DNA from: an uncultured Alphaproteobacteria bacterium | Lineage (GTDB): Bacteria; Pseudomonadota; Alphaproteobacteria; RF32; CAG-239 | Reading direction: 5' to 3' | NCBI GenBank assembly: GCA_949297665.1 | Contig: CASFTO010000090.1 | Location: 33,378 to 97,377, forward strand | Length of the DNA: 64,000 bases | Shown: piece by piece, positions 1,587-57,360 of the stretch | Position numbering within the stretch: the stretch's first letter is position 1 | Layout: each line of letters begins with the position of its first letter | Translations under genes and position numbers: made by a program | The notes under the pieces: model-generated | Told to the model about the DNA's origin: nothing | The model's input: the letters and a program-made list of their open reading frames with translations, nothing else | Database searches by the model: none

Positions 1587-2780
1587 ATGTTTCATCCTGA
1601 ATATATCAATCCTGCAAAATTAATTACTAATGCAGATATCTTAAAATTATTTGAACTTGTTGAAAAACATGGTGGAGTGCTTCGTTTTGTCGGTGGTGCG
1701 GTCAGAGATGCTATTGCCGGAATTGAGCGGTCTGACGTCGATTTGGTTACGGATATGTCGCCTGCTGAATTTTCTGATATGTGCATTGATGAAGGCATAA
1801 AATGCGTACCCATCGGAATCCAATTCTTTACAACAGGGGTTATTGTTAATAATAGTTTCTTTAAAGTTACTTCTCTATCTTCTGAAGATGAAAATAGTAA
1901 AGATGAATGGAAAAACGATGCCGCTCAGCGCGATTTGACCATAAACGCAGTTTATGCCGATGATAAAGGTAATGTTTTTGATTACTATAATGGTATAAAA
2001 GATCTTGAACAAGGAAATATAAAATTTATAGGTTCGCCTCAGAAAACTATTGAAAATGATTATATCCGTATAATGAGATTCTTTAGATTTTGTGCTATGT
2101 TTGGAAAACATGTCGATCCTAAATCGTTAGAGGCTTGCATTAGAAATAAAGAGTTTTTACATAAAGTTTCCTTAGAAAAAATTAAGGAAGAATTGTTTAA
2201 AATTATTATGGCACCTAATGCCGTCGCGGCTTTAAAACTCATTTTTGATAATAATATTCTAAATTTTTTAATTGCTCCCCCCAAGAATCTTGATAATCTT
2301 AGTTTATTAGATTCTTTAATTGGCAAGCTGGGTATTTCCAAAAGTATAATTAGAAGAATTTATGTTATGTTTCAGCCTGATGTTAAAAGAGCTAATAGAT
2401 TAGCAGATATTTTTCGTTTAACTAAAGAACAAAAAGAACATTTAATTGAATTATGTAAGGCACGTATAACGTCGCAATCATTTAAAGACACCGTTTCCAT
2501 TCGTCAGGCGTTATTTAAGTATGGAAAGGAAATTTGTATTGATAAGTGGTTGTGCTTAAATTTAGATAATACTAATTCCGATTTTGTAAAATCTATTTTA
2601 AATACACTGTACAAAACAAATACACCATCTTTTCCGCTATCCGGAAAAGATCTTATTGATTTAGGCGCAGACACAAAACTTATTGGACTATATCTAGACG
2701 GATTAAAAAAAGATTGGTTCGAAGGAGGATGTTTTTCAAGTAAAGAGGACTTAATTGAAAAATATAAAGCAATATTTTAA
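1587..2780 (+). CDS. cca: CCA tRNA nucleotidyltransferase / poly(A) polymerase family
   Basis: N-terminal nucleotidyltransferase motifs GGAVRD and RDLTINA; a 397 aa head-plus-body architecture. Confidence 0.85.
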   Translation: MFHPEYINPAKLITNADILKLFELVEKHGGVLRFVGGAVRDAIAGIERSDVDLVTDMSPAEFSDMCIDEGIKCVPIGIQFFTTGVIVNNSFFKVTSLSSEDENSKDEWKNDAAQRDLTINAVYADDKGNVFDYYNGIKDLEQGNIKFIGSPQKTIENDYIRIMRFFRFCAMFGKHVDPKSLEACIRNKEFLHKVSLEKIKEELFKIIMAPNAVAALKLIFDNNILNFLIAPPKNLDNLSLLDSLIGKLGISKSIIRRIYVMFQPDVKRANRLADIFRLTKEQKEHLIELCKARITSQSFKDTVSIRQALFKYGKEICIDKWLCLNLDNTNSDFVKSILNTLYKTNTPSFPLSGKDLIDLGADTKLIGLYLDGLKKDWFEGGCFSSKEDLIEKYKAIF

Positions 2781-3054
2781 ATACATTGTTTTTATATAAC
2801 AAACCAATCAACAAAACAACGTTAAAACAATATTTTAACAAATCGTTCGTTTTTTAGCCATATAATGGGGAATTTTGTTTTTTTCAATATAACATTCGCA
2901 AAAACATTCTTTTCTTATCAGCGTTAAAAAAATCAGCTTTATTATGCTTTATAAAAAAAACGGCTTAAGTTTTATACATATAGCCATTTTTAATTTTATA
3001 ATATTATTTATACTTCATTAAAAGTATCTCAAAAACTGCTCTGTTATTGAGATT

Positions 3055-5335: not shown

Positions 5336-5692
5336 GCTGATTATACTATTTTACGATTTTAGCTTTGTGTATTAAAAAATTGACTTATAAACATATAATG
5401 TTTATTCTGTGTTTTCGGGCTCTAATTTTTATCAATATTTTTTAGTTCTTTCAAATAAATTATTTATAAAAAAATAACATTAAATAAAACTCTCTTGCTT
5501 TGCGAAATATTTTTCTCCTTGTGTGCCTAATTTAATTTTCACAAACATTTTTCTTCGCAGCATTTTTCTAATTTATTTTTTTGTGTCAGATTTGTTTCTT
5601 TATGTTCCTATACTTTAAATACATTGTTTTTTTTATTTAAAATCATAATCTCACACAACTTACATAGTCGCATTATTTTTACTCACTTAACC

Positions 5693-7704: not shown

Positions 7705-9051
7705 ATGAATATAACTCAAGAATCAATAACTATAAAAAAATATTCTCTTGTTAAAGGCATACTTACTAATTCTTGTAATAAAAAATTTTTTAATCAAATA
7801 GATGCTCTTATTTTAAAAAAATATTTTGACAATGCTTACGAGTATTCCCTAACAGAAAATATAGAAAGAATTAATGCTCATAATTTATCGTTTAACGATA
7901 TCAATAAAATTATAGATAATTTTATGTGTTGCGTTGAAAATCTATCTATTTTTCACAATCGTAGTTTATTTGAAATGGTAAAACTTTCTTTTTTGCCTTC
8001 GAAAAAATTAAATAGAGTTATTTCAATTGATACTTACGCTAAATTGGCAGCATATTTACATTATGTTTCACATGAAACAAATAAATTAAGTTTTGATTTT
8101 TTAATCCTAAGAATAACCGATAATTTATTATTAAAAATAAAAAATATTAATAATACAGATTTATCATCTACTTATAATAAATTAAAATCTGCTATCTTGG
8201 ATAAAATGATTATCTACGCTTATACCCCAGAAAAAAGAGGAAATGAAGCAACTATTTTATGTTGGATTGATAGATTATTATATGCTGTTATTGAAAAAGA
8301 AATAGATCTAGATTCTTTTATCATTTTATCTAAAAAAATTTTAGAAATAACGTCTAAATCAATTTATATTTATTGGAAGTTAATAAATGCTATCGACTAC
8401 CTATTATCTCAAAAGGATTATCATTCTTTCTCCAGTCTTAGAAAATATAAATCAGATTTGCAAAAATATATTGATGAAAAATATTTATATCTCAATTTAT
8501 CAACGGATGAATTGCAAAATATCTTCGTTAGTCTTCTAGCTAAACAAAATATTGTAAAAGAAGATTATTATTCTTTTTTTGAAGTATTAGCATCTTTTGC
8601 AAAAAAATCAGCTAGTAATAAATTATTTTGCCTTAAGTTATGTGACTATTTATTATATTTTAACCAGAAAAAACAAATCTTTGGTTATCGCTTTATTCGT
8701 AAATATTTTGTAGATGTATTACTTTCGTTATTTCATAAAAATGATTTGATAAATGTAAAAAATAAAGAACTGCAAATGCTAATTGAATTGTGGTTTAATG
8801 ATGCTTTTTTTTGTTTTGAAAGAAAAAGGTTGCTTTTTAGTATTGTTAATATTCTTAAATCTATTAATACTAATGATGCTAAATTAAGTCATAATAATTT
8901 TTATAAATATTGTGATATTTTAGATTATATTTTAGCAACCAGCCATGATAATGACTTTGCTGATATTATTGATTTTTTAGCTTTCAATAATGAAAATAAA
9001 AGCAAAATTGCAAAATACTTTAAGCTCACCAATTTGCGCAAAAATATTTAA
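7705..9051 (+). CDS. Hypothetical protein, very AT-rich, Asn/Lys/Ile/Leu-rich, no recognised domain
   Basis: 448 aa intact ORF, diverging from mnmG across a 164 bp AT-rich spacer. Composition is much more AT-rich than the neighbours. Its stop codon is embedded in a copy of the TTTAAATACA motif. Confidence 0.55.
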   Translation: MNITQESITIKKYSLVKGILTNSCNKKFFNQIDALILKKYFDNAYEYSLTENIERINAHNLSFNDINKIIDNFMCCVENLSIFHNRSLFEMVKLSFLPSKKLNRVISIDTYAKLAAYLHYVSHETNKLSFDFLILRITDNLLLKIKNINNTDLSSTYNKLKSAILDKMIIYAYTPEKRGNEATILCWIDRLLYAVIEKEIDLDSFIILSKKILEITSKSIYIYWKLINAIDYLLSQKDYHSFSSLRKYKSDLQKYIDEKYLYLNLSTDELQNIFVSLLAKQNIVKEDYYSFFEVLASFAKKSASNKLFCLKLCDYLLYFNQKKQIFGYRFIRKYFVDVLLSLFHKNDLINVKNKELQMLIELWFNDAFFCFERKRLLFSIVNILKSINTNDAKLSHNNFYKYCDILDYILATSHDNDFADIIDFLAFNNENKSKIAKYFKLTNLRKNI

Positions 9052-9059
9052 ATACACCG

Positions 9060-10448
9060 TTATTTTCCTATACAAAAACTTCCAAAAATATTGTTTAGTA
9101 TTTCACTAACTTCAACACATCCTGTTATTTTTCCAATAGCTCTGCAGGCAAGTCTGATATCCTCCGTAGCAAGTTCTATTTCTTTATCTAAATTAAAAAT
9201 CTCAAGATTTTCTAGACACTCTTCAAGAGCCTCCCTATATCTCATTCTGGTTATTAAACAATTTGAAGATAAAGAAAAATTATCTTTTATAGTTTCTATA
9301 ATGGCAGTTGTCAGAATATCAATTCCTTGATTGTATTTTGCAGATATTTTTATATGGTTCTTTTTTTCTATATTATTCTTAAGTGATACTTTATCGATTT
9401 TATTTGCTACATAAAATACCTTTCCGTGAAAATCTTTTAGAGCTTTAAATTCACTGTTTTTATTCGTAGAAGCATCATATAATGCGATTACGATATCGGC
9501 TTCGGATATTTTTTCTTTAGCAATTTCTATTCCTTGTTTTTCTATAGGATTCTCAGTTTCTCTTATCCCGGCTGTATCAGTTATTATTACAGGATACCCC
9601 CCCATATCTAAATTTATATCTATTGCATCACGCGTTGTACCGGCTATATCCGATACAATAACAGCGTTTCTTTTAACCAATGCATTTATTAAACTTGACT
9701 TTCCCGCATTCGTTTCTCCGGCAATTACTATGCGAAAACCATTTCTTAAACGCTCATTAACATTGTTTTTTTGTAAATGTTTTGCTATTTCTTTTTTCAC
9801 TTTAAATACAGTGTTTAAAATATCTTCACTCAAATTTTCAGGTATATCTTCTTCCGGGAAATCAATAAATGCTTCAAGATATGTTAAAACTTTTACCAAA
9901 TCTTCACGCCATGATGTATATAAATATCTTAAGTTTCCTTCCATTTGTTGCAATGCATATTTTTGCTGCATAGATGTTTCTGCATCAATTAAATCAGCAA
10001 GACCTTCTGCCTCCGTTAAGTCCATTTTTTGATTATAAAACGAACGTTTTGAAAATTCTCCAGGCTCAGCTAATCGAACATTATCAAATTCACTTAGCGC
10101 ATCCAAAATGCTTGATAGTACAGCTTTTGAACCGTGACATTGTATTTCGGCAATATCTTCGCCTGTAAAAGAATAGGGGGCCTTAAAGTATATAACCAAT
10201 GCTTTATCCAAAAGTTCTTGTGTATTCTTTTTCTTTATGTCGGTAAAGTAAGCATGGCGTTGCTTAATCGTTGCAATATTTATATTTGTCATTTGCGATA
10301 TTACATTCAGAACCTCTTCACCTGAAATTCTTATTACGGCAACACCTGACTTTCCATAAACAGTCGATAAAGCATATATTGTTGATGAAGACATTTTTAC
10401 TCCTTTTCTTTTTTTTCTTATAAGTAGCTTTTTTTGTATATTACGCAA
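9060..10448 (-). CDS. mnmE: tRNA modification GTPase MnmE (TrmE)
   Basis: G-domain motifs GETNAGKSSL and DTAG; C-terminal CIGK tetrapeptide at the very end. Confidence 0.9.
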   Translation of the reverse strand: MRNIQKKLLIRKKRKGVKMSSSTIYALSTVYGKSGVAVIRISGEEVLNVISQMTNINIATIKQRHAYFTDIKKKNTQELLDKALVIYFKAPYSFTGEDIAEIQCHGSKAVLSSILDALSEFDNVRLAEPGEFSKRSFYNQKMDLTEAEGLADLIDAETSMQQKYALQQMEGNLRYLYTSWREDLVKVLTYLEAFIDFPEEDIPENLSEDILNTVFKVKKEIAKHLQKNNVNERLRNGFRIVIAGETNAGKSSLINALVKRNAVIVSDIAGTTRDAIDINLDMGGYPVIITDTAGIRETENPIEKQGIEIAKEKISEADIVIALYDASTNKNSEFKALKDFHGKVFYVANKIDKVSLKNNIEKKNHIKISAKYNQGIDILTTAIIETIKDNFSLSSNCLITRMRYREALEECLENLEIFNLDKEIELATEDIRLACRAIGKITGCVEVSEILNNIFGSFCIGK

Positions 10449-10525
10449 TAAAAATTTATTTCTCTATATAAAATTATTCAAATTTTAATGTTTCTGATTT
10501 TATTTTGTTTCTGAAAGGAGATCAG

Positions 10526-11533
10526 ATGAATTCGGTTCGTATTGCTTTCTTTGATATTGCTAAATTTATTGCCATGATGATGGTTATTTTAGGACACTTT
10601 GGTGTACCGGATATAAATCGATTTGTTTTTACTTTTCATATTCCTCTTTTTTTTCTTATCAGTGGATATTTTTTTACCCCTTATGAAAAAACTTTTTCTC
10701 TTTTGAAAATTAAAGCCAGGCAGCTTCTTGTTCCCTATTTGACTGTCATGTTTGCTGTTATTTTTATTTATATCTGTCAAAATTTTCTCGAAGGATATTC
10801 GGCTAAAAATACACTAATAGGGGTTATGGATTATTTTATCGGCTATTTATATGGTAGCGGTTATATTGATGACTTTTTAGGACAGCATATCGAAATTGTC
10901 GGACCGATTTGGTTTTGTTTAGCTCTTTTTTGGGATTTTATTTTACTTAATTACTTCTTAAAAACTAAACATCCTTTTGTGGGAATCTTATTATGTTTTA
11001 CGGTTGGATATGTATCAAGCTTTTTTATATGGCTTCCGCTTAGTATTCAATCTGCTCTGACATCTTTGCTTTTTTTCTATTTGGGATATCAATCTAAAAT
11101 TCACGATTTTTTCAATAAATCTATCCATGTGTCGCGAATTTTACCCTTATTGTGTATTTGGGGGGTTGGATTAAGTTATGGTAGTCAATTTCTAATTGTG
11201 CAAAATTTTGCGGTTTCTTTAGTTAGTGATGTTATTGTTGCTCTCGCCGCTTGTTATTTGGTTTTACTTTATTGCCAATGGTTAGAACATAATACTAAAT
11301 CTGCAAAAATTATGGCTTTTTTGGGGAGATACACAATTGTTATGCTTTGTTTTCATAGTATTGATGTCAATATTATGCCGTGGAATGAATATTTCAAAAC
11401 GCCAAATACAACCAGTACTGTTATTTTGATAAAAATATTGATTACTTTTATTAAATTTTTGTTTCCTATATTTGGCGCTTTAATTGTTGCAAAATCTTCA
11501 ATATTAAGGAAATTCTTTGCTTTGAAAAATTAG
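10526..11533 (+). CDS. Acyltransferase 3 family integral membrane protein (OafA/OpgC-like)
   Basis: Multi-TM protein with N-terminal [18 protein letters not shown] and FFLISGYFF signatures of the acyltransferase_3 family. RBS AAGGAG precedes the ATG at 10526. The ORF track starts earlier at 10505. Confidence 0.75.
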
Positions 11534-12783
11534 CTGTTCATATTATCAAAGAAATCGCGGTTATCTTTCGATTGACGCAACTTATCAAGTAAAAATTCCA
11601 TTCCGTCGGTCATACCCATTTGCATCAAAACACGGCGCAATACCCACATTTTTGTTAAAGTTGCTTTATCAACCAGTAATTCTTCTTTTCTGGTGCCTGA
11701 ACGTGTTATATCAATTGTCGGGAATAATCGCTTATCCGTTAATTTTCTATCCAAGATAATTTCTGAGTTACCTGTTCCTTTGAATTCTTCAAAAATAACT
11801 TCATCCATTCTTGAACCGGTATCTATCAAAGCGGTTGCAATTATTGTTAAAGAACCTCCTTCTTCAACATTTCGAGCTGCACCTAATAATCTTTTCGGGC
11901 GTTGTAGAGCATTCGCATCTACGCCACCCGTTAAAACTTTTCCAGATGATGGTAAAACCGTATTATAAGCTCTACCTAAACGAGTTATTGAATCCAACAA
12001 AATGACAACATCTTTTTTAGTTTCAACCAAACGTTTTGCTTTCTCTATAACCATTTCTGCAACTTGCACATGACGAACAGCTGGTTCATCAAAAGTTGAC
12101 GATATAACTTCTCCTTTAACTGAACGTGTCATATCAGTAACTTCTTCGGGGCGTTCGTCTATTAATAAAACTATTAAGTAAATTTCCGGATGATTTATTG
12201 CAATGGCATGCGCTATATTTTGCAACATTACCGTTTTACCAGTTCTAGGCGGAGCGACGATTAATCCGCGTTGTCCTTTTCCTTGCGGTGATATTAAATC
12301 AATAACTCGTGTTGTATAATCCTTTTCTCCGCAAATTATATCAAAATTCAGTTTTTCCGTCGGATATAGCGGTGTTAAATTATCAAAATTTATGCGCAGT
12401 TTAGATTTTTCCGGATCATCGTAGTTGATTGTATTTATTTTAGTTAGCGCGAAATATCTTTCATTTTCTTTTGGGGCTCTAATTTCGCCTTCAACAGTAT
12501 CTCCGGTTCTTAATCCATAGCGTTTAACTTGTTGAGGGGATACATATATGTCGTCTGCTGATGCTAGATAATTTGATTTTGATGAACGTAAAAAACCAAA
12601 ACCGTCTTGCATTACTTCTATAACACCATCGCCATAAAGTATGTGATCGTCTTCAGCAACTTTTTTCATAATGGCAAAAATTAAGTCTTGAACACGCATG
12701 GATGATGCGTCTTCTACTCCCAACTCTTCCGCTTGACTTAAGAGTTGTTTGGGAGATTTATCCTTTAAATCTTTTAAATGCAT
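11530..12783 (-). CDS. rho: Transcription termination factor Rho
   Basis: 417 aa; Walker A PPRTGKT; RNA-binding N-terminus; high similarity pattern to Rho. Confidence 0.95.
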
Positions 12784-13298
12784 GGATTAAACCTATTGGG
12801 TAAGAATTTTTTAAGAATTTAATGTTAGTTTCTTTATAAGAGTTTTTTTTAAGATGTCAATTTAAAATGTTTTTTTGAAAAGTTTTGTTTTTTCTTTCAA
12901 AAGGGGGGTAGTTTTAGGTGATGTCGAAAAGTTATAAACAGGAAAAAGTGCCAAACATTTATTTTTAAATAATTTTTTTGTTATTTGTTTATCCTTGTTA
13001 ATTGTGTTGATAACTTTTTTGTAAACAGTTTTTTGCAGATTTTTTTGTAGTTGTTTAAAAGGCTGTGCAGGACTCCAAAAATTTGTTTTAAAATCAATTT
13101 TTTGATTAAATCGTTTTTCTTGTGGGTAAAGGTAACTTATCAACATATTTCACAAGATGGAATAAGTTCCTAAAAAATGTTTATAACTTGGGTTTATTTT
13201 TTGGCTTAATGGTGATTATTTGTTAATTGTTTTTTAAACAGTTTAGTTATGCACAGAGTTGCTTCTTTTTGTGCATAAAAATAAAATTTGAGGATGAC

Positions 13299-13871
13299 AT
13301 GATTTTTGTTGCTATTACGGGTTCTATTGGATGTGGCAAGACAACAGTTGCTCATATCTTAAGAAAACTAGGTTATTTGGTTTATGATGCGGATAAATGG
13401 GTGAAATTTTTATATTTTAAACAAGATTTTTTGTGTGAAATTCAGAAAAATTTTCCGCAGGTTTTTGTGAATGGAATTTTTAATAAAAAAATGTTGCGCA
13501 CTGTTGTTTTTCAAAATCCTAAACAATTGAAAATTCTTGAAAATCTAATCCATCCTTTTTTAACAAAAAAATTACGACAAATTATTCGTTATCGGCGTAA
13601 TGAAGGAATTGTTTTTTTTGAAGCGCCACTGCTGTTTGAATTAGGATGGGATAAGTTTTTTAATTACGTTATTGTAGCTGATGTGGAATATGAAATTCAA
13701 AAAGAACGAGTTATGAAAAGAGATAAAATTTCTGAAGATGAATTTATTAGAATCAATTCCTTACAAATGCCTAGGTGTGACAAAATTTGTCGTGCAGATA
13801 TGGTAATTGATACTGGGGTGGGTTTAGATAAATTAAGAAGAAATATTGTACAGATGTTGGGAGTTTTTTGA
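13299..13871 (+). CDS. coaE: Dephospho-CoA kinase
   Basis: P-loop ITGSIGCGKTT directly follows the ATG at 13299 with RBS GAGGA. The ORF track extends this to 13227 over a hairpin, which is unlikely to be real. Position upstream of dnaQ is typical for alphaproteobacteria. Confidence 0.85.
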   Translation: MIFVAITGSIGCGKTTVAHILRKLGYLVYDADKWVKFLYFKQDFLCEIQKNFPQVFVNGIFNKKMLRTVVFQNPKQLKILENLIHPFLTKKLRQIIRYRRNEGIVFFEAPLLFELGWDKFFNYVIVADVEYEIQKERVMKRDKISEDEFIRINSLQMPRCDKICRADMVIDTGVGLDKLRRNIVQMLGVF

Positions 13872-14598: not shown

Positions 14599-15299
14599 TG
14601 TTTTATTTTTCTAATGTAAAAGGACGTAAAGTCTTAAAATCAGATTTTTTAAATGATGTGGAGCATTTTTTTACGACGCGTGAATTATGTCTTTTTGCTA
14701 AAGAAGATGATATGTCCGACAATAGGAAATTGATTGAAAATTATTTAGGACAGAAAATGGCAACCAATCAACCTGTTCATGGTACGCATATTGCAACAGT
14801 TGAGGATAATAATTTTTTTTATAGTCAGACTGATGGTTTGCTTATTTCTAAAGGGCAGGCGGCTTTTATGAATTTTGGGGACTGCGTTCCTATAATTTTT
14901 TATGTAAATAATATGGGAGTTATTGCACATGCCGGTTGGCGAGGAACAGTTCAATGTATGGCTAAAGTTGCTGTTGAAAAGCTGATAAGAGAGTATGGCA
15001 TTAAAGCTCAAGATATTAAAGCTGTTATTGGACCTGCAATTTGTTCTAAATGTTATGAAGTAGGGCAAGATGTTTTTGCTCAGTTGTATAAGACGGTTGC
15101 TAATCATTTTGAGGGGTTTTATCATAAGGATAATAAGTATTTTGTTGGGCTTAAAGAAATTAATAAACAACAATTGCTAGAGTGTGGAGTTGGCCAAATA
15201 GACGTTTGTCCTTATTGTACGGCATGTGGTGAAAAGTTATTTTATTCTTATCGCTTTGAGAAAACGGGGTATAGACATAGTGCTGTGTTAAAGTTATAG
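14598..15299 (+). CDS. pgeF: Purine nucleoside phosphorylase / laccase-domain protein PgeF (YfiH, DUF152)
   Basis: Cu-oxidase_4 family signature (GDCVPI, HAGWRG, C-terminal Cys cluster CPYCTAC). Confidence 0.8.
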   Translation: MFYFSNVKGRKVLKSDFLNDVEHFFTTRELCLFAKEDDMSDNRKLIENYLGQKMATNQPVHGTHIATVEDNNFFYSQTDGLLISKGQAAFMNFGDCVPIIFYVNNMGVIAHAGWRGTVQCMAKVAVEKLIREYGIKAQDIKAVIGPAICSKCYEVGQDVFAQLYKTVANHFEGFYHKDNKYFVGLKEINKQQLLECGVGQIDVCPYCTACGEKLFYSYRFEKTGYRHSAVLKL

Positions 15300-15324
15300 C
15301 TATCTTGTTTCGAACAAGATAGCT
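15298..15324. terminator. Perfect 12-bp inverted repeat (agctatcttgtt / aacaagatagct) between convergent pgeF and the outer-membrane protein gene; no U-tract
   Basis: Read directly from the sequence. Confidence 0.4.
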
Positions 15325-15332
15325 ATAATTTA

Positions 15333-19837: not shown

Positions 19838-20539
19838 TTAATATTCTATAAGAAATAATATTATTAAAGTTGAAATCACAATGGAGGGACCATAAGCATC
19901 TTGGCGTTTTTTATTGATAAAGCAACTTATTGCAAAAATTAGGCATGATAGGAGAATAACATAGGGTATATTGCTGAATCCTAACCATGCTCCGATTGCT
20001 GCTAGTAATTTTATGTCACCACCTCCAAAAGCGTCTGGATGCTTTTTTATTATAAATAGAGAGGCAATAACCGGAATTATATATCCTCCTAATGCGCCTA
20101 GTGCACTATTTGCTGTTGAAGATGCAATGTCATAGCCTAAACAATTTCCGGCAAAGGTAGCGTATAAGAAACCAACAATTAATAATGGAACTGTCAATAT
20201 ATCTGGCAATAAGAACATTCTTTTATCAATTTCCATGAGCATGAATAGAATAATAATTAAAAATGTAATCCATGGAGTTTCTTGAGTTGGAAGAACTTGC
20301 GATGCTAAAAAAATCACAGCAGAGGTAATAATTCCCCAACCAAGTGAACGCATAAAATATCTGTGGCACAGAAGTTGGTATTTGTGATTATTCTTTCTTT
20401 TGGCATAAGAAACGCTTTTGTTTATATGAAAGATTCTATATAAAGCATATGCTAAAGTTGCCGGCATAAATTTTGAGAAACGTCGCGCTAAATAGGGAAT
20501 TGTGAAGCCAAAAACAAAGCCTATGATTATGTATAACAT
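19838..20539 (-). CDS. Prepilin peptidase, A24 family (Flp/Tad-type CpaA-like)
   Basis: Multi-TM protein with the GGGDIKLLAAIGAWLG motif characteristic of A24 prepilin peptidases. Confidence 0.75.
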   Translation of the reverse strand: MLYIIIGFVFGFTIPYLARRFSKFMPATLAYALYRIFHINKSVSYAKRKNNHKYQLLCHRYFMRSLGWGIITSAVIFLASQVLPTQETPWITFLIIILFMLMEIDKRMFLLPDILTVPLLIVGFLYATFAGNCLGYDIASSTANSALGALGGYIIPVIASLFIIKKHPDAFGGGDIKLLAAIGAWLGFSNIPYVILLSCLIFAISCFINKKRQDAYGPSIVISTLIILFLIEY

Positions 20540-40507: not shown

Positions 40508-40880
40508 GAGCGGTTTAAGCGAAAAAGGCGATTTTTTGAGATTGTGGGGCAAGGGAGATTTTGAGGTTTAAAGTCTATTTGTTTAAAAAAGCGGAGTCAA
40601 ATTGACGGAATCTACAAAAAAGTATTGAAAACAATAGAAAAAGATGTTATAGTTAAGATGTGAATTTATATTTAGGTGTTTTGAATTATTTTAGAGTTTA
40701 TTATGCAAGTGGTCTTTCGGGATTATTTACTGATAACTTCTCTGGAAGAATTTGAAATGCCTTTTTTATGTTGAATTTTTAATTTAATATCCATATGAGA
40801 GCAACAAATTTTTTCTTTAAAACAGCCTTATGTGCTGTTTTTGCATTGGTGGCGATAGCCATTAATGCTCAGAAGATTGT
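40508..40880 (+). repeat. Direct repeat copy 1 (promoter + 5' leader + signal-peptide coding) shared with 41723-42095
   Basis: Roughly 370 bp at about 95% identity by eye; includes identical Met-Arg-Ala-Thr-Asn-Phe-Phe-Phe-Lys-Thr... signal peptides. Confidence 0.9.
40625..40653 (+). promoter_or_regulatory. Sigma70-like promoter TTGAAA-N17-TATAGT inside repeat copy 1 (the identical element in copy 2 is at 41841-41869)
   Basis: Hexamers and spacing read from the sequence; lies about 140 nt upstream of the ATG. Confidence 0.4.
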
Positions 40881-41646
40881 TAATGGAGTGTCTTTGACCA
40901 AGAAAGAGGTCAAGGAACTCTTAGTGAAAGATCCCTCTATGAGAATTTCCATGGAGGAAAAAGAAATCTCTCGCGCGGCAGATTCTATCCGCGTAGAGAG
41001 AAAGATCGCGTACACACGCGATAATTCTTTTTTCTTTTATCGGGATACAATCTCCCGATACGTTGGGAATTCAAATGAAATTGATTTTGCCACGAAGGAA
41101 GCCGTGCTTCGTGGTGAAAAAGAAGTCCGCTCAAGCGCACAGCGTGCGGACGGAACCAGAATTAACGGTATCTATGTATCTGCTCTGGGAGGAGCGGATT
41201 ATGTGGATAAGACGCTGAACGCCAAGGCAGGTGTTCGCGTTGGTGTGAATTTTAAGCGCCTTCTGCTTGAAGTGGAAGGAGCTTATTCCACCAGCGCGCA
41301 TACTTCTCGCTCCACCTTGAGTGGGAAGTATGACATCATTGCCGTAAGTGGCAATGTAGGATATAAGTTCTGGCAAGACCGGAACTATCGTTCCTATATT
41401 GCTGCTGTATTGTCTGCCGGATATGCCCTGCAGACATCAAGCGGCTCGGATGATGTCGCCAGAACCCAGAATTACGGGTTCATTGGGGCGTTGAATCTGC
41501 GGGGAGCTTGGTCGTTTGCCCCTAGCTGGCTTCTCTTCGGAGAAGTTGGTGCCACCCTGAAGCCGGAGGTGTTCCATACGGAAGGATGGCAGCAGATGGA
41601 CAACATTGGTCCGTGTGCCGCTCTAGGGCTGACCTACCTCTTCTAA
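40795..41646 (+). CDS. Outer-membrane beta-barrel protein (paralog 1)
   Basis: Signal peptide MRATNFFFKTALCAVFALVAIAINAQK; C-terminal ...LGLTYLF; GC-rich body. Confidence 0.75.
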   Translation: MRATNFFFKTALCAVFALVAIAINAQKIVNGVSLTKKEVKELLVKDPSMRISMEEKEISRAADSIRVERKIAYTRDNSFFFYRDTISRYVGNSNEIDFATKEAVLRGEKEVRSSAQRADGTRINGIYVSALGGADYVDKTLNAKAGVRVGVNFKRLLLEVEGAYSTSAHTSRSTLSGKYDIIAVSGNVGYKFWQDRNYRSYIAAVLSAGYALQTSSGSDDVARTQNYGFIGALNLRGAWSFAPSWLLFGEVGATLKPEVFHTEGWQQMDNIGPCAALGLTYLF

Positions 41647-41722
41647 AAGACCACTTTATGAAACAGCAGATTTTAGGAATTCCCTAAAGTTTGCTGTTTC
41701 TTTTTGTTTTAAAAGGATTTTT

Positions 41723-42095
41723 TGAGCGGTTTAAGCGGAAAAGGGCGATTTTTTGAGATTTTAGAGAGAGGGGGAATTTGAGGTTTAAAGTCTATTTGTT
41801 TAAAAAAGCGGAGTCAAATTGACGGAATCTACAAAAAAGTATTGAAAACAATAGAAAAAGATGTTATAGTTAAGATGTGAATTTATATATTAGGTGTTTT
41901 GAATTATTCTAGAATTTTATTATGTGGTGGTCTCTTAGGGATTATTTACTGATAACTTCTCTGGAAGAATTTGAAATGCCTTTTTTATGTTGAATTTTTA
42001 ATTTAATATCCATATGAGAGCAACAAATTTTTTCTTTAAAACAGTCCTCGTGGCTGTTTTTGCATTGGTGGCGATAGCCGCTAGTGCTCAGAAAG
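41723..42095 (+). repeat. Direct repeat copy 2 of the promoter/leader/signal-peptide cassette
   Basis: See copy 1. Confidence 0.9.
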
Positions 42096-43024
42096 TGGTT
42101 AAAAATATCAATGTACGCGACACCACAGCGTGCGTTGCATATTTAAGTGAGAACTTAAGAGACACTATTGCGTCAGTGTCTCGTTGTGAGAGAAATGACA
42201 CCGTGTTCGTGAAAACGACGCGCGTGTTTGTAAAAAACAACGCTGTCGTTTTCCGGACAGACAGCGATGTCTATACACTAGATCCGGAATATCTGGCAAA
42301 GAAGGCTGAAAATGCTGCTTTGCTGGATACCCTCTACAAGAAGAGCGTTGGAGCTCTCTTTGTAGAGAAAGTGAAATCCGCAGGCGAGGAAAACAAAAGA
42401 GACACTTACTTCACGGAGGTAGGTGATTCTTTAAGAATTCCGCACGCCTCTGCGGACAAATACGGTGCGTCATTGGAAGTCTCTGGCGGTTGCTTGTTCT
42501 CCGAAACGGTGACAAGCCCGCTGATCAGCGTCGGCTTTGAATATTCCGGCTCATGGTGGGCTGGGATTTTAAACGCCGAGATTGGCTGGAACAAGTATAA
42601 TAAGAACGCGGTGAATGCCGGAAGTTCTTATTTAACTTACAGCACCGAACTCTTGGGTGCTGTACAGCCGTTCAAGCTCAACAAGGCCAACACCGCCAGA
42701 TTGTTTCTGGTCGGTGGTGCCGGCTTCCAGTGGTATTCCACTGACTCCAAGCCTTGGTTAGGCGAGGATGGTCAGTGGTACGATTTCCGCAGCGGCGGAA
42801 ATTCACCGTATTGGACGGCAGGTCTCCGCTTTGAGTGGCGGAAATTTGCCACTGGCAATAGCTGGACGGTATCAATACTTTACCGTCAGCTGACAGGTTC
42901 CGGAGTCATCCAGAACGCTTCTCTTGAAAGAGAGAATGGCGTGATGGTGAAGGTCGGATACTCGTTCGGTCTTTGCCGGAACAAGGTTGGTTCCGTTAAG
43001 GAGTCAAAGGCACTGGCTTACTAA
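42014..43024 (+). CDS. Outer-membrane beta-barrel protein (paralog 2; mature domain unrelated to paralog 1)
   Basis: Signal peptide MRATNFFFKTVLVAVFALVAIAASAQK; Gly/aromatic-rich strands; GC-rich body. Confidence 0.75.
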   Translation: MRATNFFFKTVLVAVFALVAIAASAQKVVKNINVRDTTACVAYLSENLRDTIASVSRCERNDTVFVKTTRVFVKNNAVVFRTDSDVYTLDPEYLAKKAENAALLDTLYKKSVGALFVEKVKSAGEENKRDTYFTEVGDSLRIPHASADKYGASLEVSGGCLFSETVTSPLISVGFEYSGSWWAGILNAEIGWNKYNKNAVNAGSSYLTYSTELLGAVQPFKLNKANTARLFLVGGAGFQWYSTDSKPWLGEDGQWYDFRSGGNSPYWTAGLRFEWRKFATGNSWTVSILYRQLTGSGVIQNASLERENGVMVKVGYSFGLCRNKVGSVKESKALAY

Positions 43025-43185
43025 TAATTGCAGGGAAAGATGAGGGCGTATGCTCTCGCTTTCTCTGCTTTTTTTATGGTTAAAAAGGGGATTTTTGAGT
43101 GTTTTTAGGATTATAGCGCGCGATTTTTGTTGTTTTAGACGGAAAAATAGGGTATAATTCTATTCAGAACTAAAATTATTTAGAT

Positions 43186-43800
43186 ATGAAGAAGAATTTT
43201 TTCGCAGTCATGGCAGCGATAGTTGTCATCTGCTCGGCTTTTGTTGGAAATGCGTCTGCACAGTGTCTTTACCGCTATGATTACGGTTATGGCGGGGGCG
43301 GTTTATTTGGTGAAGGAGCTAATTTCTACGCCGGATTTGGCGCAGGTGCCGCTCTGGTCAATGACCTTGCTTCTCCAACATTTAGCGCGCGTTTGGGCGT
43401 AGAAGCAGGACTCTTTGTGGCAGAGTTAGAGGGAAGCTATCTCTCTATCAATTCCGTTTATGATGATGGCTTTGAACCCGAAACAAACACCCTCTCTACC
43501 ATGACGGTGGGGGTAAACGTTGGGCTTAATATTTTAGCTTCCTCCGTGGGGCTCTTGTCCTTGATGCTCCATACGGGGTATGCACTGCAAGAGGAATGGT
43601 ATCATGGTGGTTATTATGACTATTATGGTCATGCCTACTATGGGCGTTATTATATCGGAGTCGGCTTAAACGGTTCCGTCAATCTGACGAATCGCTTGGC
43701 TCTCTTTGCAGAGGCAAGGTATCAGTCCATCCCGATTGACGGATGCGGAGAAACGAAATGGGGAGGTGTTCTCTCCGGCGGACTCCGTGTCTATTTCTAA
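43186..43800 (+). CDS. Outer-membrane beta-barrel protein (third, small Gly/Tyr-rich)
   Basis: Signal peptide MKKNFFAVMAAIVVICSAFVGNASA; C-terminal ...GLRVYF; a -10-like GGTATAAT upstream. Confidence 0.7.
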   Translation: MKKNFFAVMAAIVVICSAFVGNASAQCLYRYDYGYGGGGLFGEGANFYAGFGAGAALVNDLASPTFSARLGVEAGLFVAELEGSYLSINSVYDDGFEPETNTLSTMTVGVNVGLNILASSVGLLSLMLHTGYALQEEWYHGGYYDYYGHAYYGRYYIGVGLNGSVNLTNRLALFAEARYQSIPIDGCGETKWGGVLSGGLRVYF

Positions 43801-44281: not shown

Positions 44282-44426
44282 TCTCTTATCTTTAAATACA
44301 TCGTTTAAACACCTTTAAATACGCCGTTATCTTCAACGACGTATTTTTTTGTTGGAATGTTGTAAAAAAATGGTAACTCAAAGTCGCGAAAATGTTATTT
44401 AAATACACTGTGTAAATTTATATAAG

Positions 44427-44460
44427 AAAACACCTCGCACTTGAGCACGAGGTGTTTTTT
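44427..44460. terminator. Bidirectional intrinsic terminator downstream of rpsA (minus) and the secreted-protein gene (plus)
   Basis: aaaacacctcg-loop-cgaggtgtttt followed by TTTTTT. Confidence 0.75.
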
Positions 44461-44477
44461 GTGATTAAAGAATTAAA

Positions 44478-53355: not shown

Positions 53356-53415
53356 CCGATTGTTTTTACTTTTTTTGTTTCGACCTACTGTTGTTTGGGC
53401 AATGGTAGGTTTCTT

Positions 53416-53443
53416 TTTAAATACATTGTTTAAATACATCGTT
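53416..53443 (+). repeat. Tandem pair of the dispersed 15-mer TTTAAATACAYYGTT
   Basis: tttaaatacattgtt then ttaaatacatcgtt; other copies are listed in the findings. Confidence 0.85.
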
Positions 53444-53572
53444 TTTTCTTTTTTATTCATAAACGGCCTTTTTCGTTGTGTATTAATGGTATTTTCTTGA
53501 TGTTTCTTCTGTAAAAAAGGGGTATGTATTCGATATTAATTGAAGTTCTGGTAAGAGGTGAGTTTTTTTAAT

Positions 53573-54103
53573 ATGCGAAAGCTAGGATTGTTTGTTTTTA
53601 TAATGTTAATTTCTGCGTGTCAGTCTAAACAAGTTATTGTGCCGGCTGTTGTTCATAATGTTAGTACAACTCAGGAGGTTGTTGTGGAAAAAGCTCGTTT
53701 GCCGATTATCGGAGAAGTTGAACCAATTTATTTTTTACCGATGAAATCTCCGTTTGCTGCCAGAATTGATACCGGTGCGACAACGTCTTCTTTGGATTGT
53801 AATGATGTGGAATATTTTGAACGTGATGGCGAAAAATGGGTGTCCTTTAAACTTAAAAATCGTAAAACAGGTGAAGAACATTTGTTTGAAAAAAAAATTG
53901 AGCGTTCGTTTAAAGTTAAACGAGCCGGACAAGATGAGAGCCGTAAAGCTGTGAAAATGGATGTTAAAATGGGAGGAGAAGTCTTTTCTGCTGTTTTCTC
54001 TATCGCTGATAGATCTGATTTTGATTATCAAGGGTTAATCGGACGTAATATTTTAACAGGAAGATTTTTGGTTGATACATCTACTTCTTATACGCTGAAC
54101 TAA
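53573..54103 (+). CDS. Retropepsin-like (clan AA, DTGA-type) aspartic protease, lipoprotein
   Basis: Signal peptide with lipobox LISAC; catalytic AARIDTGATTSSL. The family is usually annotated as putative ATP-dependent zinc protease or clan_AA_DTGA. The ORF track starts at GTG 53558; the ATG at 53573 has RBS AAGAGGTGA. Confidence 0.65.
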   Translation: MRKLGLFVFIMLISACQSKQVIVPAVVHNVSTTQEVVVEKARLPIIGEVEPIYFLPMKSPFAARIDTGATTSSLDCNDVEYFERDGEKWVSFKLKNRKTGEEHLFEKKIERSFKVKRAGQDESRKAVKMDVKMGGEVFSAVFSIADRSDFDYQGLIGRNILTGRFLVDTSTSYTLN

Positions 54104-54112
54104 TTAGGATGA

Positions 54113-55663
54113 ATGATTATGAAACTAAATTTAACCAGATTTTTTACTATTAGAAAAGTTTTGAGTCTTTTGTTGATTTGTGCTGTAGGTTATGCAGCGT
54201 ATAGTATCTATTATAAGGTTAAATATTGGGGATTTTCTCTCTCTCCAAAGGCTGTTACTGATGTATGGACGGTAGATGCTAAAATTTCATTTAGGGCTCT
54301 TGGGGGAGATGTTAAAGTTTCTTTGGCTGTTCCAAATGATAGAGATGGTTTTAAAATCCTTAGTGAGGAAATTGTTGCTAAAGGTTATAAAATTACACAG
54401 GATAAAATTAATAGCCGTGTTGTCTTGGAGGGAAAGGATAAAGAAGGTAAGCAGAATCTGTATTATCGTTTGAGTATTTATGATGATGCGCAGAATGTTG
54501 CTCTTAATTCTTTGTTAGCAGCAAAAATCGATAGACCTATTTTATCTGAAGAAGAAACTATTCAAATGCGCAAAATTTGGGAATTGTCTGAGTTACAAAA
54601 AGGTGATAAAATCCAAAAGGCTATTTTGGCTATTAATCAAGAGGTTAATAATCCTACAATGAGTTTGATTCTGCCTCTTAATCATACAGCAAAAGAATTT
54701 GCGGAAAAAGTTATTCAGGTTTTGGCTTATAAAAGAATTCCTGCTCGTATTGCAAGAACGATTAAACTTGAGGAAGGGCGTAAAACCGAAAAGCCGGATA
54801 TTATGTTGGAGGCATATTATGACGGACATTGGACGCTTTATGATTTGAATACGGCTAAAATAGGGCTGCCTAAAAATTGGGTTATCATTCAAAGAGGCGG
54901 AGTTTCTCTTTTGGACGTTAAGGGGGGCGAGGATTCTACGGTCGTCTTCTCTGTTTTGAAATCGGTGGCTTCTCCTCTGAAAATGGCTGAGCATCGTGCT
55001 AAAGCTCATGATGAACTTTGGAGTTATAATTATTCTATGTATACTTTGCCGGTGTTTGAACAAAATACTTTAAAATGGTTGATGATTTTTCCTCTGGCGA
55101 TTTTAGTTGTTGTTATTATGCGTAATGTTATCGGTGTGTCTACCATGGGGACTTTTACTCCTATGTTGTTAGCTATGGCTCTGGTACGGACCGGATTTTG
55201 GCCGGGATTGATTTGTTTTTCGGTGATGATTGCTTTGGGTTTGGTTATGAGAGCTTTGGTGGCGAAATTGAATTTGTTATTGGTGCCGAGAATCTCTTTT
55301 GTTGTTATTTTTGTTATCTTACTTATTCAAGTTTTGACTGTTGTGGGCTATCGGCTTAATTATACAATTGTCAGTTCGGCTATTTTCTTCCCGATTATTA
55401 TTACCGCGTGGATTATTGAACGTGCTTCTATTACTTGGGAAGAAGAGGGGGCCGTTAATACTTTGAAAGAAATTTTGTTTACTTTTATAACGGCTGTTGT
55501 GACCTACTTTGTTATCAGTAATGAATATGTACGACATGTTATGTTTGCTTTTAATGAACTTAATTTGGTGATTTTATTTGTGGTTATGTTGTTGGGGACT
55601 TATACAGGTTATCGCGTAACGGAATTGATGCGCTTTGCACCGCTTATCCATAAGGAAAATTGA
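54113..55663 (+). CDS. Membrane protein: N-terminal inactive transglutaminase-like domain fused to a C-terminal 7-TM module
   Basis: N-terminal signal-anchor, a roughly 300 aa extracytoplasmic domain, then 6-7 hydrophobic helices (WLMIFPLAILVVVIM ... TYTGYRVTELMRF). The architecture and neighbourhood match the 7TM-transglutaminase partner of RimK-related ligases. Confidence 0.6.
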   Translation: MIMKLNLTRFFTIRKVLSLLLICAVGYAAYSIYYKVKYWGFSLSPKAVTDVWTVDAKISFRALGGDVKVSLAVPNDRDGFKILSEEIVAKGYKITQDKINSRVVLEGKDKEGKQNLYYRLSIYDDAQNVALNSLLAAKIDRPILSEEETIQMRKIWELSELQKGDKIQKAILAINQEVNNPTMSLILPLNHTAKEFAEKVIQVLAYKRIPARIARTIKLEEGRKTEKPDIMLEAYYDGHWTLYDLNTAKIGLPKNWVIIQRGGVSLLDVKGGEDSTVVFSVLKSVASPLKMAEHRAKAHDELWSYNYSMYTLPVFEQNTLKWLMIFPLAILVVVIMRNVIGVSTMGTFTPMLLAMALVRTGFWPGLICFSVMIALGLVMRALVAKLNLLLVPRISFVVIFVILLIQVLTVVGYRLNYTIVSSAIFFPIIITAWIIERASITWEEEGAVNTLKEILFTFITAVVTYFVISNEYVRHVMFAFNELNLVILFVVMLLGTYTGYRVTELMRFAPLIHKEN

Positions 55664-55664
55664 A

Positions 55665-56612
55665 ATGTTTGAGTGGCTCTTTAATGGAAAAAAATTGCGC
55701 GAAAACGGTGTGTTGGGGATGAACGATCGTAACTATTCGGTAATTGCAAAATATAATAAACGTTCTCTCTATACGCTGGTGGATGATAAAGTTAAAACGA
55801 AAAGATTAGCTAACAGTATCAATATTAATACGCCTAAAATGATTGGTATTATTGAATTCCAGTATCAGGTTAAAAATCTTTTGGATATTGTTAAGGGCTA
55901 CGATACTTTTGTGATTAAACCGGCTCACGGTAGCGGTGGAAAAGGTGTATTGGTAATAAAAAAATATGATGCGAAACATTTTTATAGTGCCTCAGGTGAT
56001 GTTTTGAGCTTTAAAGATGTTTACCAGCATGTTTCTAATACACTGAGCGGACTTTTTAGCTTAGGCGGAAAATATGATGTTGCGCTTATTGAAGAAGCTG
56101 TTAATTTTAGTGATGTGTTCAAAAATTTTAGTTATCATGGCGTACCGGATGTGCGCGTTATTGTCTATAAAGGTTTTCCGGCGATGGTGATGATGCGCTT
56201 GGCTACTAAAGAATCCGGCGGACGCGCTAATTTGCATCAGGGAGCTGTGGGCGTTGGCTTGGATGTCAGTACTGGTTTACCTCTTAATGCCGTTATGCAT
56301 AATAAACCTATTTTTGAACATCCTGATACAAAAGCGAATTTGATGGATTTGCGTGTACCGTTTTGGCGTGAACACTTGATTATCGGTTCTTTGGCCTATG
56401 ATATGACCGGTTTGGGATATTTGGGGGCGGATATTGTGTTAGATGAGAATCGTGGACCGATGATGTTGGAAGTTAATGCTCGTCCCGGGTTGGCTATCCA
56501 AATTGCGAACGGAAAAGGCTTGAAAACACGTTTGCAGGAAATTGATGAAAAGTATCCTTTGGGACTTTCTGCTGAAGAAAGAGTTGATTTTGTCTTGAAT
56601 CAAGGAAAATAA
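55665..56612 (+). CDS. Alpha-L-glutamate ligase-related (RimK-like) ATP-grasp protein
   Basis: ATP-grasp signatures IKPAHGSGGKGVLVI and ADIVLDENRGPMMLEVNARPGL. The likely start MFEWLF at 55665 abuts the stop of the 7TM gene. Confidence 0.75.
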   Translation: MFEWLFNGKKLRENGVLGMNDRNYSVIAKYNKRSLYTLVDDKVKTKRLANSININTPKMIGIIEFQYQVKNLLDIVKGYDTFVIKPAHGSGGKGVLVIKKYDAKHFYSASGDVLSFKDVYQHVSNTLSGLFSLGGKYDVALIEEAVNFSDVFKNFSYHGVPDVRVIVYKGFPAMVMMRLATKESGGRANLHQGAVGVGLDVSTGLPLNAVMHNKPIFEHPDTKANLMDLRVPFWREHLIIGSLAYDMTGLGYLGADIVLDENRGPMMLEVNARPGLAIQIANGKGLKTRLQEIDEKYPLGLSAEERVDFVLNQGK

Positions 56613-57318: not shown

Positions 57319-57331
57319 CTTTAAATGAATG

Positions 57332-57360
57332 TTGACAAAAAATATCTTGTATTTTAATGT
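57332..57360 (+). promoter_or_regulatory. Sigma70-like promoter, TTGACA then a 15-17 nt spacer then TTTAAT/TAATGT
   Basis: Consensus -35 with an AT-rich -10 about 40 nt upstream of the 57401 gene. Confidence 0.35.

Follow-up and report, generated by a model that had tools for sequence, protein, structure and literature searches.

What does a 15-nucleotide (nt) word do in a bacterial chromosome, if it recurs on a single strand, both within genes and between them? The question is raised by a 64-kb stretch of contig CASFTO010000090.1 from an uncultured alphaproteobacterium (hereafter the window, meaning that stretch at its full length), in which an initial annotation had pointed to dispersed, same-strand copies of the 15-mer TTTAAATACAYYGTT, often at or just after stop codons and in tandem pairs. 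Together with a 9-kb flank on the left, ~73 kb of this genome was read; on the right, the last protein of the window had no exact match by which the stretch could be extended. With high confidence, the motif appears to be a functional DNA site, as judged from sequence comparisons. As to the kind of site, our leading but tentative proposal, to which we give somewhat less than an even chance, is a cis-acting oriented landmark that would be bound by a putative sequence-specific protein and would serve in the organisation of the origin/centromere domain or as a barrier. We have good confidence in the putative binding of a protein, and modest confidence in the particular role suggested here, i.e., origin-domain organisation or barrier.

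The 15-mer proved to be real and non-random. Against dinucleotide-preserving shuffles, which served as the background for 15-mer counts, TTTAAATACAYYGTT was found exactly six times in the window (starting at 2776, 5614, 9047, 44291, 53416 and 53429) with 0.03 matches expected, and 18 times when up to two mismatches were allowed, with 2.5 expected. All six exact matches and 17 of the 18 are on the + strand, and the 9-mer core TTTAAATAC occurs 12 times on the + strand and never on the - strand. A pool of 121 instances, taken from the window and related loci, gave the consensus TTTAAATAC-R-N-Y-G-T-W(-T), written in its refined form as TTTAAATACRNYGTW, and the repeat unit G-TTTAAATAC-R-N-Y. The motif has an information content of ~26 bits and 15 informative positions, and its upstream flank bears no conservation. 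Exact matches to TTTAAATACRNYGTW in the window number 11 on the + strand and none on the - strand, and one-mismatch matches three and one, respectively, in line with the original claim that every copy reads in the same direction; at two mismatches (nine on the + strand versus four on the - strand) the signal sinks into the background.

The list of copies in the initial annotation was largely accurate. Every copy named there was recovered within one base, the tandem partners starting at 44314 and 53429 rather than 44315 and 53430 and the copy in mnmG occupying 6149-6163, and the copies embedded in coding sequences at 2597 (cca), 6149 (mnmG) and 9801 (mnmE) are genuine. The copy at 44398-44412 is present as well, although it ends in G and counts as a one-mismatch variant. 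Three further copies had been overlooked, namely 6987 in mnmG, 2481 in cca and 9444 in mnmE, the latter two with one mismatch. The degenerate copy at 57320 corresponds to a 14-mer, TTTAAATGAATGTT, just 3' of a terminator hairpin. As had been noticed, the TAA stop codons of cca (1587..2780) and of the open reading frame (ORF) 7705..9051 are formed by the motif, of which they occupy positions 3-5. The 14 copies in the window comprise nine at 2.4-9.9 kb, from cca to mnmE, and five in arrays at 44.3 and 53.4 kb; six lie in coding sequences, and two more give the stop codon of a gene converging on its neighbour. Tandem partners are offset by 13 nt from start to start. No copy at up to one mismatch was detected between 9.9 and 44.3 kb of the window, and none was found in the 9 kb left of it.

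Copies inside genes allowed the constraint on the motif to be compared with that on the surrounding codons. In codon alignments of mnmG from seven species (68-80% protein identity to the copy in the window), the three most conserved 15-nt windows were an embedded parS-like site, which ranked top, and the two motif copies. In the corresponding alignment of mnmE from seven species the motif was the top window, with a nucleotide identity of 0.96 against a gene mean of 0.65. In both genes the motif outranked catalytic motifs with invariant amino acids. We also asked how often species pairs with the same amino acid use the identical codon (for mnmE, in an alignment of eight species). The fraction was 1.00 for the mnmG copy at 6149 (91/91) and for the mnmE copy at 9801 (120/120), 0.87 for the mnmG copy at 6987 and 0.94 for the parS control, versus 0.49-0.52 across mnmG and mnmE as a whole; less than 1% of random 5-codon windows equal the values of the two best copies. 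Amino-acid variation (S/G/A, T/N/D, P/A/S) falls on the degenerate motif positions 11-12. The frozen synonymous codons of the mnmG and mnmE copies show that purifying selection acts on the DNA itself.

The motif is not confined to the window. One genome per species in GTDB was scanned with the 19-mer TTTAAATACAYYGTTTAAA, and at least 119 stretches matched. Among the 119 matches listed, 41 loci derive from ~25 uncultured gut Alphaproteobacteria metagenome-assembled genomes (MAGs), recovered from human, ruminant, deer and mouse gut samples and labelled variously in their records as Alphaproteobacteria, Rhodospirillales, Rickettsiales or 'Acetobacter sp.'; the other matches listed are single chance matches in A+T-rich genomes. 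Orthology of the loci was assigned by tblastn with the proteins of the window, and by their flanking proteins nearly all of the loci listed are orthologous to three sites of the window. The array at 53.4 kb (site A) accounts for 14 of them, the array at 44.3 kb (site B) for seven, and the cca-to-mnmE region for 10 plus one, L070, just left of it. The remainder lie at the end of trkA (four) and at a moxR-DUF58-glycosyltransferase and gatC locus (three), and two are unplaced. Another class of locus is situated just left of ialB, where a cation-efflux gene ends.

A metagenome collection, which was scanned completely with the 22-mer tandem TTTAAATACRNYGTTTAAATAC, yielded 53 stretches: 19 at site B, 13 at site A, four ~3 kb right of dnaQ at the end of a yfiH-like gene, two each at mnmE, the trkA end and a new rumen site, and 11 that are unrelated. 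Of the 42 tandems derived from the clade, 38 are in the origin-proximal syntenic block, these counts covering tandems and not single copies; on the 380-400-kb contigs that contain the syntenic block, no tandem was found elsewhere. The species that share motif positions are well diverged, with proteins 30-80% identical. At site A, for instance, the number of copies per array varies from two to four between species, the intergenic sequence has diverged, and the sequence of the terminator hairpin is species-specific. Searches of the literature for the sequence of the motif or for the concept returned nothing relevant.

The position of the copies relative to the replication origin bears on what the motif may do. 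On the + strand of the window, the GC skew at third codon positions (GC3 skew) is ~-0.2 up to mnmE and +0.3 to +0.6 from coaE on, whatever the strand of the gene. Six DnaA-box-like 9-mers, with one mismatch, are clustered in and just beyond the rho|coaE spacer at ~13 kb, where the motif is absent. Because the switch of the GC3 skew and the DnaA-box cluster are found there, this spacer is most likely the origin (putative oriC). The nine motif copies at 2.4-9.9 kb are interleaved with three parS-like sites, each with one mismatch to TGTTTCACGTGAAACA, and lie 3-10 kb left of the DnaA-box cluster and the skew switch. The densest motif zone in the window is the 8-kb centromere region, with the parS sites and parAB-rsmG-mnmG-mnmE, beside the putative oriC.

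In this clade, the base-composition skews on the two sides of oriC do not mirror each other, as observed in the window with its left flank (L122) and in L178, L112 and L132+L131. In the species of the window and one relative, the AT skew at third codon positions (AT3 skew) has negative + strand values to the left and right of oriC alike, for genes of either orientation, and the GC3 skew flips; in a human-gut relative the AT3 skew flips at the origin and the GC3 skew does not. The non-mirrored skews share the absolute polarity of the motif, and a simple one-sided fork block does not fit them.

The orientation of the motif is strict throughout the clade. At each of 84 loci of the clade the strict copies, 208 in total, occupy a single strand, and the opposite strand has none; neighbouring copies start 13 nt apart in 35 cases and 26 nt apart in 20, the wider spacing enclosing a decayed middle unit. 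Within coding sequences, the motif reads antisense to mnmG, mnmE and rsmG, and in the sense direction of cca, the orphan ORF between mnmG and mnmE, and other genes. A rule linking orientation to the upstream gene was considered and rejected: by our own count, ~8 intergenic site classes follow a co-oriented gene and ~7 do not, which is a chance split and agrees with the earlier remark that orientation is independent of neighbouring gene direction. Copies on the + strand are located both left (2.4-9.9 kb) and right (44.3 and 53.4 kb) of the skew switch and DnaA-box cluster. In a related MAG with a 127-kb contig, the copies at 8.5 and 12.6 kb, which belong to the moxR/gatC locus and are 105-109 kb away from oriC on its left, and those at 107.7-114.6 kb, which correspond to the parS region, are all on the same strand. 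This reading of the contig assumes that its GTDB and ENA copies share orientation, an assumption supported by the sign of the skew; the GC3 skew at the distant moxR/gatC locus is negative (-0.5 in two genes), as expected for the left replichore. The orientation is set neither by genes nor by replication direction. Since the copies do not change strand across oriC, a mirrored logic like that of KOPS, Chi and Ter sites is ruled out.

The copies in the window and their surroundings are compiled in Table 1, in which neighbouring genes are named by NCBIfam and Pfam.

Table 1. Motif copies, genes and other features of the window (positions count from the first letter of the window).
Feature	Position	Strand	Remarks
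ialB-like gene	982-1485	-	
cca	1587-2780	+	
Motif copy, one mismatch (TTTAAAGACACCGTT)	2481-2495	+	in cca, sense; same variant at the same place in relative L178
Motif copy	2597-2611	+	in cca, sense; frame xxT TTA AAT
Motif copy	2776-2790	+	supplies the cca stop TAA; cca is convergent with parB
parB	3055-3945	-	
parA	3948-4718	-	
rsmG	4718-5335	-	
parS-like site	5294-5309		
Motif copy	5614-5628	+	intergenic, between mnmG stop and rsmG start; antisense to both
mnmG	5693-7540	-	
parS-like site	5993-6008		embedded in mnmG
Motif copy	6149-6163	+	in mnmG, antisense, read Y-S-V-F-K; same codons in seven species
Motif copy	6987-7001	+	in mnmG, antisense, read T-x-Y-L-K; third most conserved 15-nt window of mnmG
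Orphan ORF	7705-9051	+	
parS-like site	8064-8079		
Motif copy	9047-9061	+	supplies the TAA of the orphan ORF; position conserved in relatives; ends one base beyond the first base (9060) of the convergent mnmE stop codon
mnmE	9060-10448	-	
Motif copy, one mismatch	9444-9458	+	in mnmE, antisense; not conserved in other species
Motif copy	9801-9815	+	in mnmE, antisense, read N-T-V-F-K; top-conserved 15-nt window of mnmE (seven species)
Acyltransferase gene	10505-11533	+	
rho	11530-12783	-	
Putative oriC	12784-13400		rho|coaE spacer and just beyond
DnaA-box-like 9-mers (six)	13005-13396		
coaE, then dnaQ	from 13227	+	
Bidirectional terminator hairpin	15299-15326		perfect; AGCTATCTTGTTTCGAACAAGATAGCT
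Type IV leader peptidase-like gene	19838-20539		
Outer-membrane/secreted-protein-like genes (three)	40795-43800		
Folding stretch, 66 nt	44285-44350		-9.8 kcal/mol, z = -4.0; contains the site B hairpin and a smaller upstream one
Site B array	44291-44328	+	copies at 44291 and 44314; degenerate middle unit TTTAAACACC at 44304
Terminator hairpin, site B	44317-44352	+	last motif copy as 5' arm, partial inverted copy as 3' arm; a T-run follows
Motif copy, one mismatch	44398-44412	+	adjoins the rpsA bidirectional terminator; conserved in L069 and L074
rpsA bidirectional terminator	44431-44466		
Intrinsic terminator hairpin of the porin gene	53382-53411	+	directly 5' of the site A array
Site A array	53416-53443	+	two copies, 13 nt apart
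Region with promoter-like box	53444-53557		
rloA3-like/rloB-like/ATP-grasp operon	53558-56612		
Degenerate motif copy	57320-57333	+	right 3' of the PPIase gene terminator; strict copy nearby in L125 and L144

The one-mismatch copy at 9444 may be lineage-specific or due to chance. Among the sense-strand coding copies called, 6/9 share the frame xxT TTA AAT with -1 slippery heptamers (2597 in the window, and L013 958, L026 6143, L039 4419, L070 3685 and L073 4446); this preference probably reflects nothing but the forbidden frame that contains TAA.

In the mechanism that we favour, the asymmetric motif would be the recognition sequence of a putative DNA-binding protein of the clade's own, and this protein would occupy single sites as well as head-to-tail arrays with a 13-bp repeat. 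The complex of protein and DNA would then act as an orientation-dependent chromosomal landmark, the likeliest role of which would be to organise the origin/centromere domain, or to insulate against RNA polymerase, SMC or the replisome, rather than to control promoters. Each of the known landmark families (parS, matS, KOPS, Ter and DnaA boxes) led to the discovery of machinery for segregating, folding or replicating DNA. The motif bears the hallmarks of such landmarks, being high in information, few in number, conserved in position, selected as DNA in essential genes and concentrated at the centromere and origin, and its one absolute orientation on both sides of the origin is a rule followed by none of the known families. 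If a protein reads the motif, it would be a new player in alphaproteobacterial origin-domain biology, and the sites offer a handle to find it; the motif-bearing DNA can be written for binding work as TTTAAATACATTGTTTAAATACATCGTT. Even if the motif is an ordinary operator, the frozen codons of mnmG and mnmE show how such sites constrain coding genes.

Several points weigh against this proposal. NCBIfam and Pfam scans detected no obvious candidate for the binder among the proteins of the window, and two species lack, at the locus concerned, the gene for the solenoid protein described below, yet retain the motif. Palindromes prevail among known domain-marking sites, whereas this motif is asymmetric. 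To our knowledge, no bacterial site family has one absolute orientation on both replichores, and the role would be without precedent. Sites also occur beyond the origin region, as one relative has copies ~105-109 kb left of it. Finally, the frequent contact of the motif with stop codons and terminators would also fit a role in ending transcription.

The orphan ORF between mnmG and mnmE was considered as a source of the binder. It encodes a protein of 448 aa, has a G+C content of 22% and belongs to no Pfam family; its 54 homologues are found in these gut alphaproteobacterial MAGs alone and evolve fast (32-86% identity). The model of the protein is an all-alpha solenoid (predicted local distance difference test score, pLDDT, 86) with weak matches to ARM/HEAT-type entries of PDB (template-modelling score, TM, ~0.2). 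We rejected it as the binder, as it shows no DNA-binding fold and is missing between mnmG and mnmE in L025 and L131 despite the presence of the motif. Any link of the protein to the motif is weak and rests on proximity only.

Among the known families of sites, those closest to the motif in behaviour are parS and the domain markers matS, ram and NBS, although the motif lacks the palindrome that defines all of them. Like the motif, parS sites bound by ParB are short, high in information, located within ~10 kb of parAB and oriC, and conserved as DNA inside genes. Nevertheless, parS is a 16-bp palindrome without orientation, whereas the motif is asymmetric, co-oriented, arranged in head-to-tail arrays with a 13-nt period and also present 30-105 kb from oriC. 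ATACA-N-TGTAT is contained only in the motif variants with A at W15, and an inverted repeat near TGTTTCACGTGAAACA is not formed. Moreover, canonical parS-like sites (5294, 5993 and 8064) are separate from the motif, and thus ParB already has sites of its own. The systems matS/MatP, ram/RacA, maoS/MaoP and NBS/Noc consist of few specific sites in one domain, both genic and intergenic, and act in chromosome organisation, not in transcription; the matS, ram and NBS sites are palindromes without orientation, and maoS exists as one site only. We know of none of these four in Alphaproteobacteria, nor of any in tandem arrays beside terminators. Compared with these families, concentration in one domain has only partly been demonstrated for the motif.

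Other recognition sequences resemble the motif less. The closest box by eye is that of IHF, with AATACA-N4-TTA in the motif against WATCAA-N4-TTR, but this leaves the invariant G13 and T14 and the high information content unexplained. In the DnaA box, TTAAATACA of the motif differs from TTATCCACA at three central positions. For the CtrA box, TTAA-N7-TTAA, the two TTAAs of a tandem are 13 nt apart from start to start, corresponding to N9, and single copies have one TTAA. No match to the LexA box was seen in a by-eye comparison. Taken by itself, the motif has a folding energy of 0 to -1.7 kcal/mol, which does not surpass that of shuffles, and because it does not fold, a role at the level of RNA or DNA structure is unlikely. 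Accurately, then, the initial annotation had stated that the motif is not a terminator hairpin and matches no CtrA, DnaA, LexA or Fur box. Several other identities were considered and discarded. An intrinsic terminator does not apply to a sequence that does not fold alone and is adjoined by the real hairpins; an RNA gene was rejected in view of the lack of a fold and of Rfam or tRNA matches, neither Rfam families nor tRNAs being found in the window; and a promoter was rejected because the motif is without a hexamer having A at 2 and T at 6, and often faces no gene. A phage origin was likewise set aside, as the tandem had no match in viral contigs.

The initial annotation had offered three candidates for the function of the motif, which together were partly supported. 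The closest is a strand-oriented architectural motif, given that the motif is strict in strand, independent of genes and selected as DNA. The other candidates, a global regulator site and a miniature repeat, and the KOPS/Chi-like logic attached to the first, are taken up below together with the explanations raised by our own comparisons.

The main rival to the oriented landmark is a function in ending rightward transcription, which we consider unlikely but worth weighing. The motif, or a protein bound to it, would be a polar roadblock or terminator helper that halts the rightward RNA polymerase on the + strand, backing up the terminators of + strand genes and suppressing antisense transcription into the leftward parAB-rsmG-mnmG-mnmE operon. 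Many intergenic copies indeed lie on or directly behind the stop codon of a gene in the same orientation (cca, the orphan ORF, a 108-aa ORF at site B, the porin gene, and the TrkA, yfiH-like and cation-efflux genes), and a same-strand intrinsic terminator adjoins most of the arrays at site A, site B, TrkA and the yfiH end. At site A this terminator immediately precedes the array, and at site B, trkA and the yfiH end it comes directly after the copies. The site A array begins 4 nt 3' of the terminator hairpin of an AaxA-like porin gene and ends 115 nt upstream of an rloA3-like gene. At site B the array begins 10 nt 3' of the stop codon of the 108-aa ORF, which encodes a secreted protein and is convergent with rpsA, and its last copy is itself an arm of the hairpin (AAATACGccGTT..AACgaCGTATTT). 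Nevertheless, the motif is present at only one of ~8 convergent junctions of the right arm, and about half of the intergenic site classes have no preceding co-oriented gene. In most species the site A array lies beyond the T-run of the terminator, which makes a signal at the RNA level unlikely there, and the copies in constantly transcribed housekeeping genes would be swept by sense transcription.

Two observations concern these junctions in their own right. No ihfB-like gene follows the end of rpsA at 44478, where the usual arrangement in Proteobacteria has one; the motif array and the convergent gene for the small secreted protein are found there instead. In the window, a perfect bidirectional terminator hairpin (Table 1) separates the yfiH-like gene from a convergent gene for an outer-membrane protein; in a human-gut relative, this junction carries a tandem motif and a terminator.

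An operator of a global transcription factor with a conserved regulon, which would have its arrays upstream of the rloA3 operon and gatCAB, seems improbable to us. Operators typically have a high information content and fixed positions between species, and arrays are located 100-145 nt upstream of the start codons of rloA3-like genes (more than 20 species) and of gatC (L099 and L112). At site A, however, anything from 11 to 70 nt separates the array from a conserved promoter-like box, TTGTGTATTART...TTGATGTTT, and terminators or a ~500-nt insertion can intervene; because this distance varies, a promoter-phased operator is unlikely. Most copies lie in coding sequences or between convergent genes, where no promoter is expected. 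Strict co-orientation whatever the direction of the target gene is not a property of operators, and the neighbouring genes share no function. The global regulator site of the initial annotation thus retains weak support, with its array unphased to the promoter-like box. As an observation apart, a conserved promoter-like box, TTGTGTATTAAT ... TTGATGTTTCTTC, precedes the rloA3-like/rloB-like/ATP-grasp operon in more than 20 species.

By analogy, the motif might also be the site of an orientation-dependent barrier protein, Ter/Tus- or CTCF-like in its logic, that would make the two arms unequal for the replisome, parS-loaded SMC or RNA polymerase; we give this version a low probability as well. 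The sites, in one absolute direction across the origin, are densest between the parS centromere and the left arm, and the non-mirrored skews around oriC would be the footprint of the barrier. The vertebrate CTCF site is an analogy only: it is an asymmetric motif of 15-20 bp whose orientation is informative as a barrier to loop extrusion. CTCF is eukaryotic, and we know of no bacterial counterpart.

More doubtful still is a polar replication-fork barrier of the Ter type, which rightward forks would pass and which would hinder leftward ones, resulting in asymmetric or conditionally one-sided replication. Tus-Ter and RTP-Ter are asymmetric polar sites, and the motif likewise is an asymmetric, high-information site in clustered, co-oriented copies, with few copies per genome and an orientation that matters. 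Its cluster sits between oriC and the rest of the left arm, and in four species the skews to the left of oriC are weaker and do not mirror the right-hand ones. RNA polymerase, too, can be blocked by Ter sites with polarity. Ter sites lie in the terminus half of the chromosome, in two opposed groups mirrored about ori/ter, whereas the motif clusters by oriC in one absolute orientation; likeness in sequence is weak (9/15 by eye). The clearly negative GC3 skew (-0.5 in two genes) ~105 kb left of oriC in a relative indicates that the left arm is normally replicated leftward, and no Tus- or RTP-like gene was seen in the family scans of the window. We rejected the idea that the odd skews stem from a one-sided fork block, since by our own arithmetic no single fraction of wrong-way replication fits both, the one required by the GC3 skew being incompatible with that required by the AT3 skew.

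There is a very small chance that the motif acts as RNA, with UUUAAAUACANYGUU repeats in 3' untranslated regions (3' UTRs), or in small RNAs derived from them, recognised by an RNA-binding protein or nuclease. At TrkA, the yfiH end and site B, the copies between stop codon and terminator would form two or three repeats in a 3' UTR. The best-conserved copies are nevertheless antisense to mnmG and mnmE, the site A arrays are 3' of the terminator in most species, and the motif matches no Rfam family and has no structure.

A DNA uptake sequence of the DUS/USS type, or a replication-oriented skewed oligomer of the KOPS/Chi type, has been largely refuted and is hardly credible. The word is clade-wide and conserved, shows strict strand bias, occurs at gene ends and once forms a terminator as an inverted pair. 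The DUS of Neisseria and the USS of Pasteurellaceae are similarly clade-specific words, located at gene ends and, in preferred frames, in genes; they occur at ~1 per kb on both strands, whereas the motif is rare, clustered (see the gaps described above) and restricted to one strand, at 208 to 0. A type IV leader peptidase-like gene in the window is not diagnostic of competence. KOPS, read by FtsK, and Chi, read by RecBCD/AddAB, share with the motif a strict strand bias independent of gene direction, but they are frequent, genome-wide, G-rich 5-8-mers that switch at oriC, whereas the motif is an A+T-rich 15-mer with ~14 copies per 64 kb in three clusters. The KOPS/Chi-like logic of the initial annotation accordingly fails on both counts, the motif being too rare and its strand constant across the origin as defined by GC3 skew and DnaA boxes.

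The miniature repeat of the initial annotation, in the form of a functionless neutral element spread by a mobile element or by slippage, is likewise largely refuted and the least likely of all: slippage of a 13-nt unit could account for the varying number of copies per array (two to four at site A), but the motif keeps orthologous positions across species with 30-80% protein identity and frozen synonymous sites, it persists where the surrounding intergenic sequence and hairpins have diverged, and it comes with no hairpin, terminal repeats, target duplications, transposase or viral-contig matches.

One further region of the window deserves mention. The three outer-membrane/secreted-protein-like genes left of site B have a G+C content of ~48%, versus ~36% around them, and a GC3 skew close to zero. 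Between most relatives their identity is only 30-45%, in contrast to ~90% for the flanking genes, and they may represent a fast-evolving or acquired island of surface-protein genes.

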